DNA from: a virus
Lineage: Duplodnaviria; Caudoviricetes
Virus record (IMG/VR): IMGVR_UViG_3300037483_000378
Span: 16,503 to 80,502 of that record
Direction: 5' to 3' (one strand)
Length of the DNA stretch: 64,000 nt
Translations under genes and position numbers: made by a program
Part shown: positions 256 through 63,999 of the stretch, in pieces
Position numbering within the stretch: the stretch's first letter is position 1
Layout: the number at the start of each line of letters is the position of its first letter
The notes under the pieces: generated by a model
Database searches by the model: none
Told to the model about the DNA's origin: nothing
What the model saw: the letters and a program-made list of their open reading frames with translations, nothing else

Positions 256-588
256 CTACGCGGACGCGAGCCTGCCGCCGCGCTCGCTGAACGCTACCCA
301 CTCCGGCCCCTTCGCGTGCGACCGCTTCCGATCGTACGTGCCGAAGTGCGCGCCCCACGTCCCGCCGTCGCGGCGGGTCAGCCAGAGGCACCGCCCTTCG
401 ATCGGCCAGTGGTAGGAGTTCGGCACCCAGCCGTCGAGGTAGATCGTCACTCTCACGATGCGCTGGTCCTTGGCGATGGCGGCCCAAAGCCCAACGCTGG
501 CCACCGGCTCCACTGCCTCCGCTTCTCCGATGATGAGCAGTCGCGCCGTCACCGTTGCCGTTGCCTGCCTCTGCGTTGTCGCGTTCAT
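256..588 (-). CDS. hypothetical protein (110 aa)
   Basis: ATG 588 preceded by GAGGAG; MNATTQRQAT...; C-terminal part of ORF 256..987. Confidence 0.6.
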   Translation of the reverse strand: MNATTQRQATATVTARLLIIGEAEAVEPVASVGLWAAIAKDQRIVRVTIYLDGWVPNSYHWPIEGRCLWLTRRDGGTWGAHFGTYDRKRSHAKGPEWVAFSERGGRLASA

Positions 589-629
589 CGTCTGCTCCTC
601 GTTGTGCCGCTCATTGGCGGCGTTGAACC

Positions 630-656
630 AAAAAGGACGCGCGCGGGTGCACGCGT
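630..656 (-). terminator. putative intrinsic terminator
   Basis: minus strand ACGCGTG-loop-CGCGCGT followed by CCTTTTT. Confidence 0.55.
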
Positions 657-665
657 ATAAAGGTA

Positions 666-741
666 TGCGGGCTGGAGGGAGTCGAACCCTCATGCCGGGA
701 ACCGCCCTGGGCTCCCTGGCCGCCTCCGCAGGCCAGCCCGC
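666..741 (-). ncRNA. tRNA-like RNA, 8-bp acceptor stem, no canonical anticodon loop
   Basis: GCGGGCTG/CAGCCCGC-A acceptor; T-arm GAGGG-TTCGACT-CCCTC; stem GGAGCC/GGTTCC with 6-nt loop CAGGGC. Confidence 0.55.
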
Positions 742-1389
742 TGAAATCTCTCCCTCTGTTCGCCCGCTGCCGCTGTCGGTCCGGTCCGTGTGGTGCGCCG
801 TTTTCCCCCTCGCCGCCTCCGTTGCGCTTGTGTGGCTCATTGGCCGCGCGGGCTGTCGCGATTCGTGTGGTGGGGATAGGTCGCCGGGTCCGGCTGTCGC
901 CGTGGCGTGCGGGCTCCGTCGGGAGTCCCGTGTACCTCTACCGTGCCGCCTCCGCTTCTGCTGCGCCGAACTCCGAAGGCTCATCACCTTCGGCTACTCG
1001 GCGCCTGACGCTTCCTCGCGTGGGGCTCTTCGGTGCCACCGTGTCACGCTGTCGCCGCTTCTTTTGGGGCGCGGCCTCGAAGGCTCTCGAATCCGCCCGG
1101 GGCGTTTGCGTCGGTGGTCTTGTCGTGAGGTTCGCTGCGTACGCAGCGCCGAGTCTCCTGCCCTCGGTCTTGGCCGGTGCCAGCCTATTGGGTCCCGTCC
1201 GACCCTCACCGCCCTGTTTCGCTCGGGCGGCCAGCGGCGGGGTTCCTCTCGTCCGGCATCCCTGGCCGGGGGTCCCGCTTCCTGCCTACAATAATAATGG
1301 GGGCGCCCCCCAATAGCTAGCCCCATAATCACATTGCGCCGCAACGACTTACGGTCATCGGCCTTTCGCGGAAGTGCCGCATAGGCACG

Positions 1390-1426
1390 AAAAGGTGGCC
1401 ACGGCCCCCTATAGTAGTAGGCCACC
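1390..1426 (-). terminator. putative terminator downstream of tRNA array
   Basis: GGTGGCC...GGCCACC stem (19-nt loop) followed by TTTT. Confidence 0.4.
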
Positions 1427-1458: not shown

Positions 1459-1532
1459 TCGGGGCGGCCGGACTCGAACCGGCGACCCTCTGCTCCCAAA
1501 GCAGATGCGCTGCCCAACTGCGCCACGCCCCG
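1459..1532 (-). tRNA. tRNA-Pro(TGG)
   Basis: full cloverleaf; TCTGC-TT TGG GA-GCAGA. Confidence 0.95.
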
Positions 1533-1654: not shown

Positions 1655-1728
1655 TGCCCTCGGCCGGACTCGAACCGGCTGCCTCGCGCTTAGGGGGCGC
1701 GCGCTCTGTCCGGTTGAGCTACGAAGGC
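1655..1728 (-). tRNA. tRNA-Arg(CCT)
   Basis: cloverleaf; CGCGC-CC CCT AA-GCGCG (C33); 5' end overlaps the HNH ORF end. Confidence 0.9.
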
Positions 1729-2321
1729 GTCGGGTCGAACAGCTCCTCGACCGCAGCGCGCGCCTCATCGCCGAGCCGCCCAAGGAATACCTCGGCACGC
1801 GTCATCGCCCGCGGCTTCCGGCGCAGGTACATCCGTGCCTCAGCCGGCGTGCGGTTGTCCTTCCGCGCGTTGCACGTCGAGCAGGCGGTCACGGTGTTCT
1901 CGTACACGTTGCGCCCGCCGCGTGACTCCGGCGTCACGTGGTCGATGGTGAGGAACTCGCCCGCCGCCGTGAGCCGAATCGTCTCCGTGCCGTAGCGCAC
2001 CATGACGTCACGCCGTCCGTGCCCGCGCGCAAGATCGCTCTCGTGCCGCCCGCAGTACATGCAGCGGTGCCCGTCCCGTAGGTAGACGTTCCCGCGCGTC
2101 CAGGACGCGCGACCGAACACCACCCCTGCGAAGTCAGCGAGCGCCTCAAGCACGATCACGACTGGGGCCGGGACGCGCACGCGGCCGTCCGCATTCCGGA
2201 ACACGCGGGTCGGGTGATCCCTCAACGACTGCGCCTTGCCCTCCAAGAGCAGGAGCACCGCGCGGTTGACCGGGATCTCGTCGATCGGCGCGAAGCTCGG
2301 GGCCAATACCAGGGTCTTCAT
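1719..2321 (-). CDS. HNH endonuclease (McrA-like, Zn-binding)
   Basis: RDGHRCMYCG...TIDHVTPESRGG...NTVTACSTCNARKDN motifs. Confidence 0.9.
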   Translation of the reverse strand: MKTLVLAPSFAPIDEIPVNRAVLLLLEGKAQSLRDHPTRVFRNADGRVRVPAPVVIVLEALADFAGVVFGRASWTRGNVYLRDGHRCMYCGRHESDLARGHGRRDVMVRYGTETIRLTAAGEFLTIDHVTPESRGGRNVYENTVTACSTCNARKDNRTPAEARMYLRRKPRAMTRAEVFLGRLGDEARAAVEELFDPTPS

Positions 2322-5809: not shown

Positions 5810-5838
5810 AGCATAACCCCCCGACGGCCCGGCGTAAA
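5810..5838 (-). promoter_or_regulatory. sigma70-like promoter
   Basis: TTTACG-17 nt-TATGCT; same -35 and GGGT-TAT at 36939-36967. Confidence 0.5.
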
Positions 5839-5944
5839 GTACCGCCACGGCCCCGCCGTCAGGCTTGGGGGCACGATGGGGGCGTCGGGATAGGCTTATG
5901 CGTGGCCCCCTAACGCCGCACCCCTTTAGGGGGCAGCCCACGCC

Positions 5945-11908: not shown

Positions 11909-12319
11909 TCACGGCCTCACCTGCCAATGGGGAAGATCCCTACGATTCGCGGGCCAATTTCCCCCCCATTCGACATGGATGCCCATGTGCAGCGCGGTCG
12001 CTTGGACGAATCCGGCCAGCCGGTAGAACCGACTCTCGTCCTGCCAGTCAATCGGCCACGGGGCCACGTCCACCGCTAGTCCCCGACCCTGAGCGTCGGT
12101 ACGCTGGTGGTTCGACAGGTTCGTCACACCGTCCGCGTAGGTGACAATCGAGCCTTTCGCCGTCCGGCCCTGAGCGTAGAGGGCTTGCTGGCGTTCCGTC
12201 GTCCTGCGGCCTTCCAGGATCGTGATATCGAAGTCCTTGATGACCTGCGTGAACAGCCGCTGCAGGTCCGGGTGGGCCGTCGCCAGTTCGCGTTTCGACC
12301 GCTCGCCAAATTCCGGCAT
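11909..12319 (-). CDS. endolysin, M15 L-Ala-D-Glu peptidase
   Basis: EGRRTTERQQALYAQGRT...SNH...LAVD...WGGNW...DLPHWQ Zn motifs. Confidence 0.92.
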   Translation of the reverse strand: MPEFGERSKRELATAHPDLQRLFTQVIKDFDITILEGRRTTERQQALYAQGRTAKGSIVTYADGVTNLSNHQRTDAQGRGLAVDVAPWPIDWQDESRFYRLAGFVQATALHMGIHVEWGGNWPANRRDLPHWQVRP

Positions 12320-12715: not shown

Positions 12716-12782
12716 CCGCAGCGATCTCCGGGTGAGCGGGTCGGGCGCCGGAGGTTTGATCGACCGCCCGGCGTTCTACCCG

Positions 12783-13037
12783 TTACTCCACCGGCTCCGT
12801 CGGCGTGATGTCCACGTAGTACGTCTCCCCCTCAACGAAGAACCCGGCCAGGTTCGGATTCGACACCCCGAACTCCAGCGTGCCCCACGGCGTCGCCGCC
12901 GAGAACTTCGTGTCCTCCGGGTCATCCTCCGCGTACCGGGTGTGCATCAGCACCTTCTGTTCGTCGTACTGTCCCGGCGTCCCCGGCGTCCCATCCGCCT
13001 TCGTCACCGTGAACTTGCACCGCGCTCTCTTGGGCAT
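12783..13037 (-). CDS. conserved hypothetical phage protein
   Basis: RCKF...FSAATPWGTLEF.VSNP...F..G.TYYVDIT. Confidence 0.7.
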   Translation of the reverse strand: MPKRARCKFTVTKADGTPGTPGQYDEQKVLMHTRYAEDDPEDTKFSAATPWGTLEFGVSNPNLAGFFVEGETYYVDITPTEPVE

Positions 13038-28707: not shown

Positions 28708-28788
28708 CGGAGGGAGCGGGAGTCGAACCCGCCAGGAGTGGGATGAGGCTCCTGCCGGCGCCCGCACCACGTCGCGCCGGACCCCTCA
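28708..28788 (-). ncRNA. tRNA-like cloverleaf in tail operon
   Basis: GAGGGG/TCCCTC acceptor, 6-bp D stem, 6-bp stem with 10-nt loop, GCGGG-TTCGACT-CCCGC. Confidence 0.55.
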
Positions 28789-36938: not shown

Positions 36939-36967
36939 CCTATAACCCTCCACCGCAGATACGTAAA
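36939..36967 (-). promoter_or_regulatory. promoter-like motif overlapping a 7-4-7 palindrome
   Basis: TTTACG-17-TATAGG; AGGGTTA-CCTA-TAACCCT at 36932-36949. Confidence 0.4.
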
Positions 36968-36971
36968 GGGC

Positions 36972-62054: not shown

Positions 62055-63458
62055 TCATCCCTCCGTTGTGGTGGTGGTTGGATCTTGCGCCACGCTGTCG
62101 AATCGCGTGTACGCCTTCTGGAAATACAGCGGCACCATGCCGGTCGGCCCGTTGCGCTGCTTCGCCAGGATAAGCTCCGTCTTCCCCTCCAGCTCCGCGC
62201 GTTTCGCAACCGCATCGTTGCGGCCCTTCGTACCGTCTCCGTCCTGCACGTACATCTCCGCCCGGTAGAGGAACATGACGAGGTCTGCATCCTGCTCGAT
62301 GCCGCCGGACTCGCGGAGGTCGCTCAGCGTGGGGCGCTTGTTCGTCCGCGTCTCCAGGCCGCGCGTGAGCTGAGAGAGCAGCACAATGGGGATGTCCAGC
62401 TTCATGGCCAGCCCCTTCAGACCGCGCGTTATCCCGTCGATCTCGTGCCGACGATTCTCCTCCCCGGCCCCGCGCATGAGTTGGAGGTAGTCCACGACCA
62501 CGAGTCGCGTCCCGACGCGCTGGTGGAGTCGTATGATCTTCGCCCTGACCTCAGACACGGTGCCGTCCGGATGGTCATCGATGTAGATGGGCGCAGTGTT
62601 GAGGTGCCCGGCCGCTACCGCGAGTCTCTGGTGATCGTCCTGCGATAGAATGCCGCGTCGTACCCGCTGCATGTCTACGCGCCCCTCCTGGCTCAGCAGC
62701 CTCATCGTGAGCGCCTTCTTCGCCATCTCCAACGACACGAGCGCGCTCGGGATGCCGTGCCCTATCGACGCGTTGCGAAGCACGTCGAGGCACCACGCAG
62801 TCTTCCCCACGCTAGGGCGCGCCGCCACCACCACCAGGTCACCGCCCTGGAACCCGCAAGTCATGCGGTCCAGGTCTGGAAAGCCCGACGGCACCCCCGT
62901 GAGTCCGCCCTTCGACTCCTGCAATAGCTCTATGTGCTCGAACGTCGCCCAGAGCGACTCCTTGAGCCACGTGAAGTCACCAGCCTGATAGCCTTCGAGC
63001 GCGGCGCCCACGCGGTCTATCGCAGCCGCCACAGCGCCCAAACCGCCCTCGCCGTTCTCGTACACGGTGCGAATCACGACGGTTGCAGACTCTACGACGC
63101 GCCGCATGACTGCCTTCTCGCTGATGATGCGAGCGTGGTACTCCACGTTCGCGGCCGTCGGCACGGCGTCCACGAGCGAGGATAGGTAATCGTACCCGCC
63201 GGCAGGCTCTAGCTCGCCCGTGCGCTTCAGCTGCTCGGAAATCGTCACGACGTCTAGAGCTTCCCCGCGTTCCCAGCAAGCTACGGAGGCGCGGAACAGC
63301 CGACGGTTCTGCTCGCGGTAGAAATCCATCTCGCGCACGATCGGTAGCACGCGTGGCACGGCATCCTTTGCGATGAGCAGCGCGCCAAGCACGGCAGTCT
63401 CGGCTTCGAGCGAGAACGGTGGCGTGCGATCGAACACCGCCTGGGCAAAATCAGTCAC
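62055..63458 (-). CDS. dnaB: replicative DNA helicase
   Basis: PPFSLEAE..VLGALL; AARPSVGKT; VVDYLQLM; LSQL.R; DLRESGGIEQDAD; KQRNGP. Confidence 0.97.
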   Translation of the reverse strand: MTDFAQAVFDRTPPFSLEAETAVLGALLIAKDAVPRVLPIVREMDFYREQNRRLFRASVACWERGEALDVVTISEQLKRTGELEPAGGYDYLSSLVDAVPTAANVEYHARIISEKAVMRRVVESATVVIRTVYENGEGGLGAVAAAIDRVGAALEGYQAGDFTWLKESLWATFEHIELLQESKGGLTGVPSGFPDLDRMTCGFQGGDLVVVAARPSVGKTAWCLDVLRNASIGHGIPSALVSLEMAKKALTMRLLSQEGRVDMQRVRRGILSQDDHQRLAVAAGHLNTAPIYIDDHPDGTVSEVRAKIIRLHQRVGTRLVVVDYLQLMRGAGEENRRHEIDGITRGLKGLAMKLDIPIVLLSQLTRGLETRTNKRPTLSDLRESGGIEQDADLVMFLYRAEMYVQDGDGTKGRNDAVAKRAELEGKTELILAKQRNGPTGMVPLYFQKAYTRFDSVAQDPTTTTTEG

Positions 63459-63999
63459 GCTCTGCCACCGTTCTAGCGACCGCTTCCTCCCACCGCCGCA
63501 CTTCATCATCATCCGCATCCGCGCAGCCACCGCTCCCGACCGGCATCCCGTCCGCGAACTCACGCCACGGCTCGTTCGGGCCCCAGAACGTCGCCGCCTG
63601 CCACACGTACACCGTGCCCTCCCGCTTCTCTGCGCGACAGAACCTCGCGTAATTCTCGGCCGCCTTGCGCAGCACGTCCGGGCTTACGCCAGCCACTACG
63701 TGCGCCCGGAACGCTCGGTACGCGCCCAGCTTTGGGTTGGGGCCACTGCGCAACGGGTACGCCTTCCATGCTACCTCGAACGCCAGCGGGTACGCACGAG
63801 TCCCGGCATCGTTCTGCGGTGCCTTTGCCGGCCATGCGCTCGTCTTGCCGTTGCCGTTGGCCGCGATCGCCTGGCCTCCAAACAGGTCCGTTTCAACCGT
63901 ATGTACTTCGTCAGAAGTACTAGGTTCTCCTAACGGATCAAGTCCGGCGGTAGGCCGCCGGGGGCCCCGGCGGATTCCGCCGGGGGGGGGGGCTATTTC
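63451..63999 (-). CDS. partial phage replication initiator (C-terminal domain)
   Basis: frame open to window edge; FEVAWKAYP.R.GPNPK..AY..F...ATFWG.N..W; directly upstream of dnaB. Confidence 0.75.
   Translation of the reverse strand, partial: EIAPPPGGIRRGPRRPTAGLDPLGEPSTSDEVHTVETDLFGGQAIAANGNGKTSAWPAKAPQNDAGTRAYPLAFEVAWKAYPLRSGPNPKLGAYRAFRAHVVAGVSPDVLRKAAENYARFCRAEKREGTVYVWQAATFWGPNEPWREFADGMPVGSGGCADADDDEVRRWEEAVARTVAERD

Follow-up and report, generated by a model that had tools for sequence, protein, structure and literature searches.

Genomic setting of the locus

The window that we analysed, 64,000 nucleotides of DNA, spans positions 16503-80502 of a virus record that is 80,502 bp long. 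It has a G+C content of 67%, encodes the capsid, portal, terminase and tail proteins of a phage, and carries nearly all of its genes on the minus strand. No close relative of this phage was found among public phage records, and for its terL gene no relatives were found in GTDB genomes. The DnaB helicase (62055-63563, minus strand) is 56-59% identical to the DnaB proteins of three Gemmatimonadota MAGs, a resemblance that points to a Gemmatimonadota bacterium as the probable host.

An array of 32 tRNA calls and a tmRNA, predicted with ARAGORN and Rfam, runs along the minus strand from 5412 to 666. Its bona fide part extends from about 5412 down to 1459, and tRNA-Pro(UGG) is the last member (Table 1). 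An HNH endonuclease gene is located inside this array (1719-2321, minus strand); the closest relatives of its product, with 31-38% identity, are found in Synechococcus, Gordonia and Arthrobacter phages. The stretch with which this study is concerned, 742-1290, fills most of the 717-nt gap that separates tRNA-Pro(UGG) from a tRNA-like element further downstream.

Table 1. Features of the U-poor stretch and its surroundings, ordered from 5' to 3' on the minus strand
Feature	Position	Strand	Basis or description
tRNA-Pro(UGG)	1459..1532	-	ARAGORN; Rfam tRNA 66 bits
T1, hairpin GGUGGCC...GGCCACC, then UUUUCG	1385..1424	-	Sequence reading; stem in MFE and centroid folds
T2, GC palindrome UGGGGGGCGCCCCCA, then UUAUUAUUGU	1286..1312	-	Terminator scan; hairpin 1298-1312
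U-depleted non-coding body	742..1290	-	Composition; extreme skew, no codon periodicity, single copy in genome
Candidate structured core	925..1240	-	Five local hairpins and a ~195-nt domain closed by ACCUC/GAGGU
Extended hairpin, 42 nt, strongest single element	963..1004	-	GCGCCGA-GUAG-CCGAAGG-UGAUGAG-CCUUCGG-AGU-UCGGCGC
tRNA-like element	666..741	-	ARAGORN tRNA-Pro(AGG); cloverleaf-like fold
T3, intrinsic-terminator-like hairpin, 8 bp (6 G-C), then CCUUUUUGG	628..656	-	Terminator scan; fold
Hairpin GCCGCC-AAUGA-GCGGC, then GAGGAG and ATG of the 110-aa gene (256-588)	586..621	-	

The phage sequence occurs in identical form in sediment and soil metagenomes. Six sequencing runs, all of them of DNA, contain the phage; they represent the same strain and show zero differences over the pieces that span the region. 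Contig pieces identical to 779-929, 1137-1287, 1187-1392 and 1295-1473 come from three other sediment and soil runs. Because identical pieces recur in other sequencing runs, the sequence of the stretch is genuine and not an assembly artefact.

The stretch is non-coding on both strands

The GC content of 742-1290 is flat across the three codon positions (0.68/0.70/0.69). The seven phage genes with which it was compared have GC3 values of 0.74-0.89 (0.82-0.89 in six of them) at a GC2 of about 0.5, and a nucleotide-by-phase chi-square that amounts to only 3.2 in the region reaches 35-82 in genes of the phage. Judged against a permutation null, a period-3 signal is absent from every 120- or 180-nt window of 742-1290; the maximum windowed chi-square, 8.9-10, falls inside the null range. 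As the period-3 test is strand-symmetric and hence covers both strands, it also rules out a plus-strand gene, a frameshifted and decayed gene, and the antisense of a membrane-protein gene. Given the flat GC by position and the lack of a period-3 signal, a protein-coding gene is rejected, and we can confirm in this respect the first-pass annotation of this DNA, which saw no credible ORF here. The translation of a spurious 278-aa ORF on the plus strand, which we used as a proxy query, found no match. Collectively, 742-1290 is non-coding on both strands. It is embedded in 539-1768, which, by loss of the period-3 signal, is the longest non-periodic stretch beyond the main tRNA array.

U depletion is the most secure oddity of the stretch

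On the minus strand, the sense strand of the tRNAs, 742-1290 consists of 24.2% A, 6.6% U, 36.4% G and 32.8% C. Among all 500-nt windows of the 80.5-kb genome, the two with the strongest AT skew fall here (-0.56 and -0.52); away from the locus, the strongest value is -0.38. At the fourfold-degenerate sites of the phage genes (n=9,601), A and T are nearly balanced on the sense strand, 8.0% and 8.8%, so that an A:U ratio of 79:21 in the stretch stands against one of 48:52 at these sites. A composition with 24% A and this ratio is therefore away from the local mutational equilibrium; it is either maintained or recent. Of the peculiarities of this DNA, the scarcity of U is the best established.

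Across some 3 Mb of other high-GC viral contigs, skews of this order are almost always coding; they arise from genes whose products are disordered and rich in Pro, Glu and Lys, or from the antisense of genes encoding hydrophobic proteins. Disordered-protein genes and membrane-protein antisense account, for instance, for the skews in contigs L102, L133, L230 and L275; both are rejected for 742-1290, which has no period-3 signal. The stretch contains three AUG, four GUG and no UUG start triplets together with nine stop triplets, and these counts are not below those of shuffles with the same composition.

Two other IMG/VR contigs, L149 (5780-9560, minus strand) and L076 (10330-12009, minus strand), carry about 4 kb of almost T-free repeats built from A, C and G only. 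These are degenerate short tandem repeats, for example GGCGAGAGACGCACAC, GACACGACAGC and GGCAGGCGCA, in which an ORF is impossible; they are situated directly upstream of a tRNA-Leu(UAG) and in the same sense as this tRNA. The arrays had no match among phage records. Their existence demonstrates that repeats can give rise to U-free DNA next to tRNAs.

Recurrent words and hairpins occur at chance level

The first-pass annotation had based its proposal of a structured RNA on words that recur in the stretch and on a chain of hairpins on the minus strand. The words are present: CGACAGC occurs four times and CACCACACG twice, all at the places given for them. CGGAGGCGGC does occur three times, but its copy at 719-728 lies within the tRNA-like element and hence outside 742-1290. 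The four hairpins that were named exist as well, at 1209-1230, 1150-1172, 1133-1148 and 973-993 of the minus strand. Neither observation, however, exceeds what shuffled sequences yield. Some 7-mer reaches at least four copies in 8.6% of 1,000 dinucleotide-preserving shuffles, the excess of repeated 6- to 10-mers has P values of 0.11-0.27 against shuffles, and those of the best ungapped direct-repeat diagonals are 0.24-0.33; TRF detected no tandem repeats in the stretch. Likewise, 11 perfect hairpins with stems of at least five pairs compare with 6.9 expected from dinucleotide shuffles (P 0.13), and four with stems of at least six pairs compare with 1.7 (P 0.12). The hairpins and words of this stretch with its 69% GC are thus roughly what chance gives, and the lesson is that hairpins and repeated words in DNA of such a composition are no evidence by themselves.

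Scans of IMG/VR for CACCACACG-N-CGACAGC and for GCCGCCRATGAGCGGC returned chance matches alone, in high-GC contigs. Functions as a CsrA/GGA sponge, an anti-SD sponge or an Hfq (ARN)n sponge are rejected, the counts of the respective motifs being equal to those of shuffles. A hammerhead ribozyme is rejected as well: UGAUGAG and CGAAAC are present but lie 230 nt apart, and there is no Rfam match.

A strand-specific folding excess in the central part of the stretch

The 549 nt as a whole do not fold better than dinucleotide shuffles to any appreciable extent (MFE z -0.9 on both strands). A local excess resides in the candidate core (Table 1), whose minus strand has a predicted folding energy of -141.6 kcal/mol against -126.6 +/- 4.8 kcal/mol for shuffles (z -3.13; none of 100 shuffles as good); the z score of its plus strand is -1.07. 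This core window had first been picked after the hairpins were seen. An unbiased scan of nine windows was then made, in which the 300-nt windows 880-1179 and 940-1239 had z scores of -3.2 and -2.5. For comparison, 25 random windows from elsewhere in the genome gave a mean z of -0.27 with a standard deviation of 0.82 and a minimum of -1.84. The 3' third of the stretch, 742-924, has no excess structure (z -0.9). Within the extended hairpin of the core, the inner stem is a perfect 7-bp helix, and the outer stem is present in both the MFE and the centroid folds.

The strand-specific folding excess of about 925-1240 fits an element that acts at the level of RNA. We regard the stretch as a candidate for a structured RNA class, with a predicted core of about 320 nt for which the evidence is modest and confined to one strand.

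Signals that frame the stretch

Between tRNA-Pro(UGG) and the U-poor body lies a 168-nt segment of ordinary composition that contains two terminator-like hairpins, T1 and T2. From its sequence, T1 looks like a terminator directly after the last tRNA; it was missed by the terminator scan since its loop is larger than 8 nt. T2 can be read either as a terminator or, at the point where the U-poor body begins, as an AT patch that resembles a -10 element (TATTAT/TATTGT). An AT-rich patch upstream of the stretch had already been pointed out, and 1286-1299 is indeed one of three AT-rich 12-mers in the 80.5-kb genome; it doubles as the U-tract of the terminator-like hairpin at 1298-1312. The U-poor body begins immediately 3' of this patch and runs to 742. 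The promoter scan called no sigma-70-type promoter near the stretch. The promoter motif of the phage itself, CTTTACG-N15/16-GTTAT, has only two copies in the window (5813-5839 and 36942-36968) and is absent from the stretch.

At its 3' border, the U-poor body abuts the tRNA-like element at 666-741. In the predicted fold, the acceptor stem of this element has 9 bp, its T arm contains UUCGACU, and its anticodon arm is abnormal. Its best Rfam score against a tRNA model is 26.7 bits for tRNA-Sec, under the gathering score of 47. With no RF00005 match and a non-canonical anticodon arm, a true tRNA is rejected, and the ARAGORN call has to be considered forced. Positions 668-740 also give a sub-threshold match to RF01684 (20.8 bits, E 0.18, gathering score 42.5), which reflects general tRNA likeness alone. 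By its modelled fold, and by analogy with systems discussed below, the element is likely an RNase P/Z processing signal, through which a U-poor RNA would obtain its 3' end at 742. Including this one, the phage has three non-decoding tRNA-like elements beyond the array (666-741, 28709-28787, and 12745-12824 in genome coordinates), all of them intergenic and in mRNA sense; they are likely processing signals.

The existence of a terminator downstream, another element of the initial proposal, is substantiated by the terminator scan, which found a hairpin at 637-656 followed by a U tract (T3). About 30 nt beyond its stem (656-637) follow a small hairpin, a ribosome-binding site and the ATG of a 110-aa gene. 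This small hairpin belongs to a type, GCCGCC-RAUGA-GCGGC, that is repeated exactly at 606-621 and 68-83 in front of two consecutive minus-strand genes, 9 to 20 nt before the start codon, with a looser third copy at 12018-12033 in genome coordinates. From these positions, it looks like a common 5'-UTR element of those genes, and it is reminiscent of the start-associated sequences of some actinophages.

Known RNA families and the search for relatives

The first-pass annotation had suggested that the stretch might be an RNA like GOLLD or ROOL or a new class, and had proposed the OLE model for comparison as well. A cmscan search with the 4,227 models of Rfam 15, which cover GOLLD, ROOL and OLE as well as introns, RNase P, 6S, ribozymes and riboswitches, gave no match on either strand of 742-1290, neither at E<=1 in a 6-kb search nor at E<=10 when 881 nt were searched with laxer filters. 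The context typical of these RNAs, a phage genome and adjacent tRNA genes, is found here. A retron or DGR template is rejected, as the phage has no reverse transcriptase, and so is a Y-RNA/Ro system, for which the TROVE protein (Ro60) and a YrlA match in the region are both missing. Outside the array, hairpins with a T loop were found at three further sites, but 742-1290 contains none; with no T-arm hairpin within it and no tRNA-clan match, the stretch is rejected as a chain of decayed tRNA modules.

The homologs that might have allowed a covariation analysis did not emerge from searches of phage records, IMG/VR, metagenomes or Gemmatimonadota genomes, an outcome that the first-pass annotation had formally listed as speaking against its proposal. 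A blastn search with 600-1460 had no match among 50,697 phage records, and two exact oligomers from the core, of 20 and 21 nt, had 0 matches each in IMG/VR. When neighbouring genes were used as guides into IMG/VR, the 110-aa gene led to no relative, the tail-fibre gene to 61 loci of which none had similar DNA or a tRNA array, and the AAA ATPase gene to four loci, all low in GC and without tRNAs or skewed stretches; an nhmmer search with the region against 3 Mb of retrieved loci found nothing. The 110-aa protein itself has just two distant homologs among 5.8 billion proteins, both in other contexts. A degenerate tmRNA-tag pattern had 0 matches in JGI metagenomes, and in 401 Gemmatimonadota genomes the region matched only scattered 20-60-nt segments at about 40 bits, which is chance level.

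A model for the U-poor stretch, and its competitors

The data reported here lend themselves to a tentative model to which we assign a probability of roughly 0.45: the minus strand of the stretch would encode the main part of an RNA that is linked to the tRNA operon and is not translated, and the tRNA-like element would fix the 3' end of this RNA. Transcription would either start at the AT patch (about 1286-1299) or reach the stretch by read-through of both weak terminator-like hairpins at the end of the tRNA/tmRNA operon. The transcript would then run for about 540 nt to the tRNA-like element (741-666), an RNase P cut 5' of this element would free a U-poor RNA whose 3' terminus lies at about 742, and the hairpin at 656-637 would terminate the unit. 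The RNA body would possess a moderately stable core (about 925-1240) of G-C hairpins and A-rich linkers, with a less structured 3' third. Its U depletion would entail few start and stop codons, few sites for U-dependent endonucleases, and no U-tract terminators; in view of these consequences, we read the stretch as a putatively stable, non-translated RNA. That the stretch is transcribed, where such an RNA would begin and end, that it would be cut at the tRNA-like element, and any role it may have are all inferred from sequence. Such a stable RNA might be either a stand-alone phage non-coding RNA or a processed leader or insulator between the tRNA operon and the next operon. With T3 immediately before the next gene and no promoter separating the two, a clean stand-alone unit becomes less plausible.

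The main rival to an RNA of this kind is an origin as low-complexity junk, which we consider somewhat unlikely. The stretch would then be a functionless spacer, the decaying A/C/G-rich remnant of slippage or duplication, transcribed together with the tRNA operon and discarded once it has been processed. This is what one might expect of an orphan sequence for which no homolog could be found, whose words and repeats are at chance level, and most of whose length shows no excess structure; the almost T-free arrays of about 4 kb upstream of tRNA-Leu in the unrelated contigs L149 and L076 offer a precedent. However, the stretch has no tandem repeat structure, and apart from composition it has no k-mer vocabulary in common with the L149 arrays (P 0.11-0.16). 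Its composition is so far from the balance at fourfold sites that a remnant would have to be recent or the composition maintained, the core reaches a z of about -3 on one strand only, and phage genomes seldom retain 0.5 kb of junk.

Less probable still is a cis-acting role as a long leader of the downstream operon, which consists of the 110-aa gene, a 152-aa gene, the AAA ATPase gene and more. In that case, a promoter at the AT patch would drive the operon, an antitermination or attenuation device within the stretch would act on T3, and the tRNA-like element would split the leader from the mRNA. It speaks for such an arrangement that no recognisable promoter of its own was found for this operon: the two copies of the phage promoter motif in the window serve no genes downstream of 637, and the distance from T3 to the ribosome-binding site at 597 is too short for a promoter. 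Moreover, a degenerate copy of the GCCGCC 5'-UTR hairpin (832-847) occurs inside the stretch together with a GGAGG (812-821). Yet, an alternative pairing with T3 was not identified, the stretch has neither a put-like nor a nut-like motif nor an Rfam cis-regulatory match, and 540 nt are very long for an antitermination or attenuation device.

We deem it very unlikely that the stretch functions at the level of DNA, whether as an origin of replication, a site for packaging or partition, one arm of an attP, or the end of the genome. Its strong strand asymmetry and the GC palindrome with the AT patch at its border would be in keeping with such a site, and the first-pass annotation had itself named a genome end or an origin repeat region as an alternative. 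Against this stand repeats or iterons that do not exceed chance, the single copy of the stretch, a record without a terminal repeat, and a cumulative GC skew that is monotonic with no turn at the stretch. The candidate for AT-rich unwinding is limited to a 14-nt patch, terL lies about 47 kb away, and a strand-specific folding excess is not predicted for a duplex DNA site. An attP is rejected since the phage encodes no integrase of either family. Finally, the stretch is about 550 nt long and has phage tRNAs as neighbours, as known for GOLLD and ROOL (PMC5737381); that it is a divergent GOLLD, ROOL, OLE, group I or II intron, RNase P or 6S RNA is nevertheless effectively refuted by the lack of any Rfam 15 match on 742-1290.

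In the most far-reaching version of our preferred model, a long shot in our view, the stretch and its tRNA-like 3' module would represent a new kind of phage RNA that is U-free, structured, matured by the tRNA machinery, and made alongside the tRNA/tmRNA set. It might, for instance, act as a decoy or sponge that occupies an RNA-binding factor or a nuclease of a Gemmatimonadota host while the phage takes over the cell. A U-free design may render such an RNA hard to translate and resistant to U-dependent nucleases.

Comparison with similar systems

GOLLD and ROOL are large, phage-associated RNAs that are encoded near tRNAs and are perhaps co-transcribed, with ROOL averaging 581 nt (PMC5737381); both have been studied by cryo-EM (bioRxiv 10.1101/2024.12.08.627333). 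The stretch resembles them in being a non-coding phage sequence of several hundred nucleotides that adjoins tRNA genes and could be co-transcribed. It differs in that it has no covariance-model match, shows excess folding over about 320 nt only, and stems from a phage with a probable Gemmatimonadota host. To our knowledge, extreme U depletion is not a described feature of GOLLD or ROOL. The stretch is a real orphan candidate RNA of extreme composition, and it is not GOLLD, ROOL or OLE.

The tRNA cluster of phage T4 encodes the stable RNAs species 1 and 2 (rnaC, rnaD), which are about 120-140 nt long and are matured from tRNA precursors. Here, too, a non-tRNA RNA would be encoded in a phage tRNA cluster, but the T4 RNAs are known to be stable and much shorter, whereas our candidate of about 540 nt is known from its sequence alone.

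For the tRNA-like element, the t-elements of plant mitochondria provide a parallel, tRNA-like structures that serve as processing signals (PMC1920247). In both cases, a non-decoding tRNA-like structure ends a non-tRNA transcript, and cleavage of 666-741 by RNase P and/or RNase Z can be envisaged; the t-elements, however, belong to an organellar mRNA system, and for the phage such cleavage is suggested by shape alone. In the long non-coding RNA MALAT1, RNase P cuts upstream of mascRNA (RF01684), a tRNA-like module, and thereby generates the 3' end. A tRNA-like module at the 3' end of a long non-coding RNA would be common to both, but MALAT1 is a eukaryotic nuclear RNA, and the RF01684 match of 668-740 is far below the gathering score.

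An example from a probable Gemmatimonadota phage would widen the known range of non-coding RNAs beside phage tRNAs beyond GOLLD, ROOL and the T4 type, by virtue of its apparent 3' end at a tRNA-like module and its extreme composition. It would also give a simple handle on the question whether U depletion stabilises RNA. At present, the value of this single orphan stretch is that of a flagged candidate.

Minor elements near the stretch

Three segments of the stretch (879-890, 1051-1061 and 1251-1262) can pair over 11-12 nt, with 83-92% complementarity, with the 3' half of tRNA-Pro(UGG) (1459-1487); in GC-rich sequence, this is probably a matter of chance. Just 3' of the 110-aa gene, at 223-247 of the minus strand, a 9-bp hairpin carries a T-loop-like UUCGACC loop. 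At about 130-160 of the same strand, behind a purine tract (GAGAGGAAA), lies a nine-codon ORF, MSTTTTRAG, with four consecutive ACG codons for Thr.
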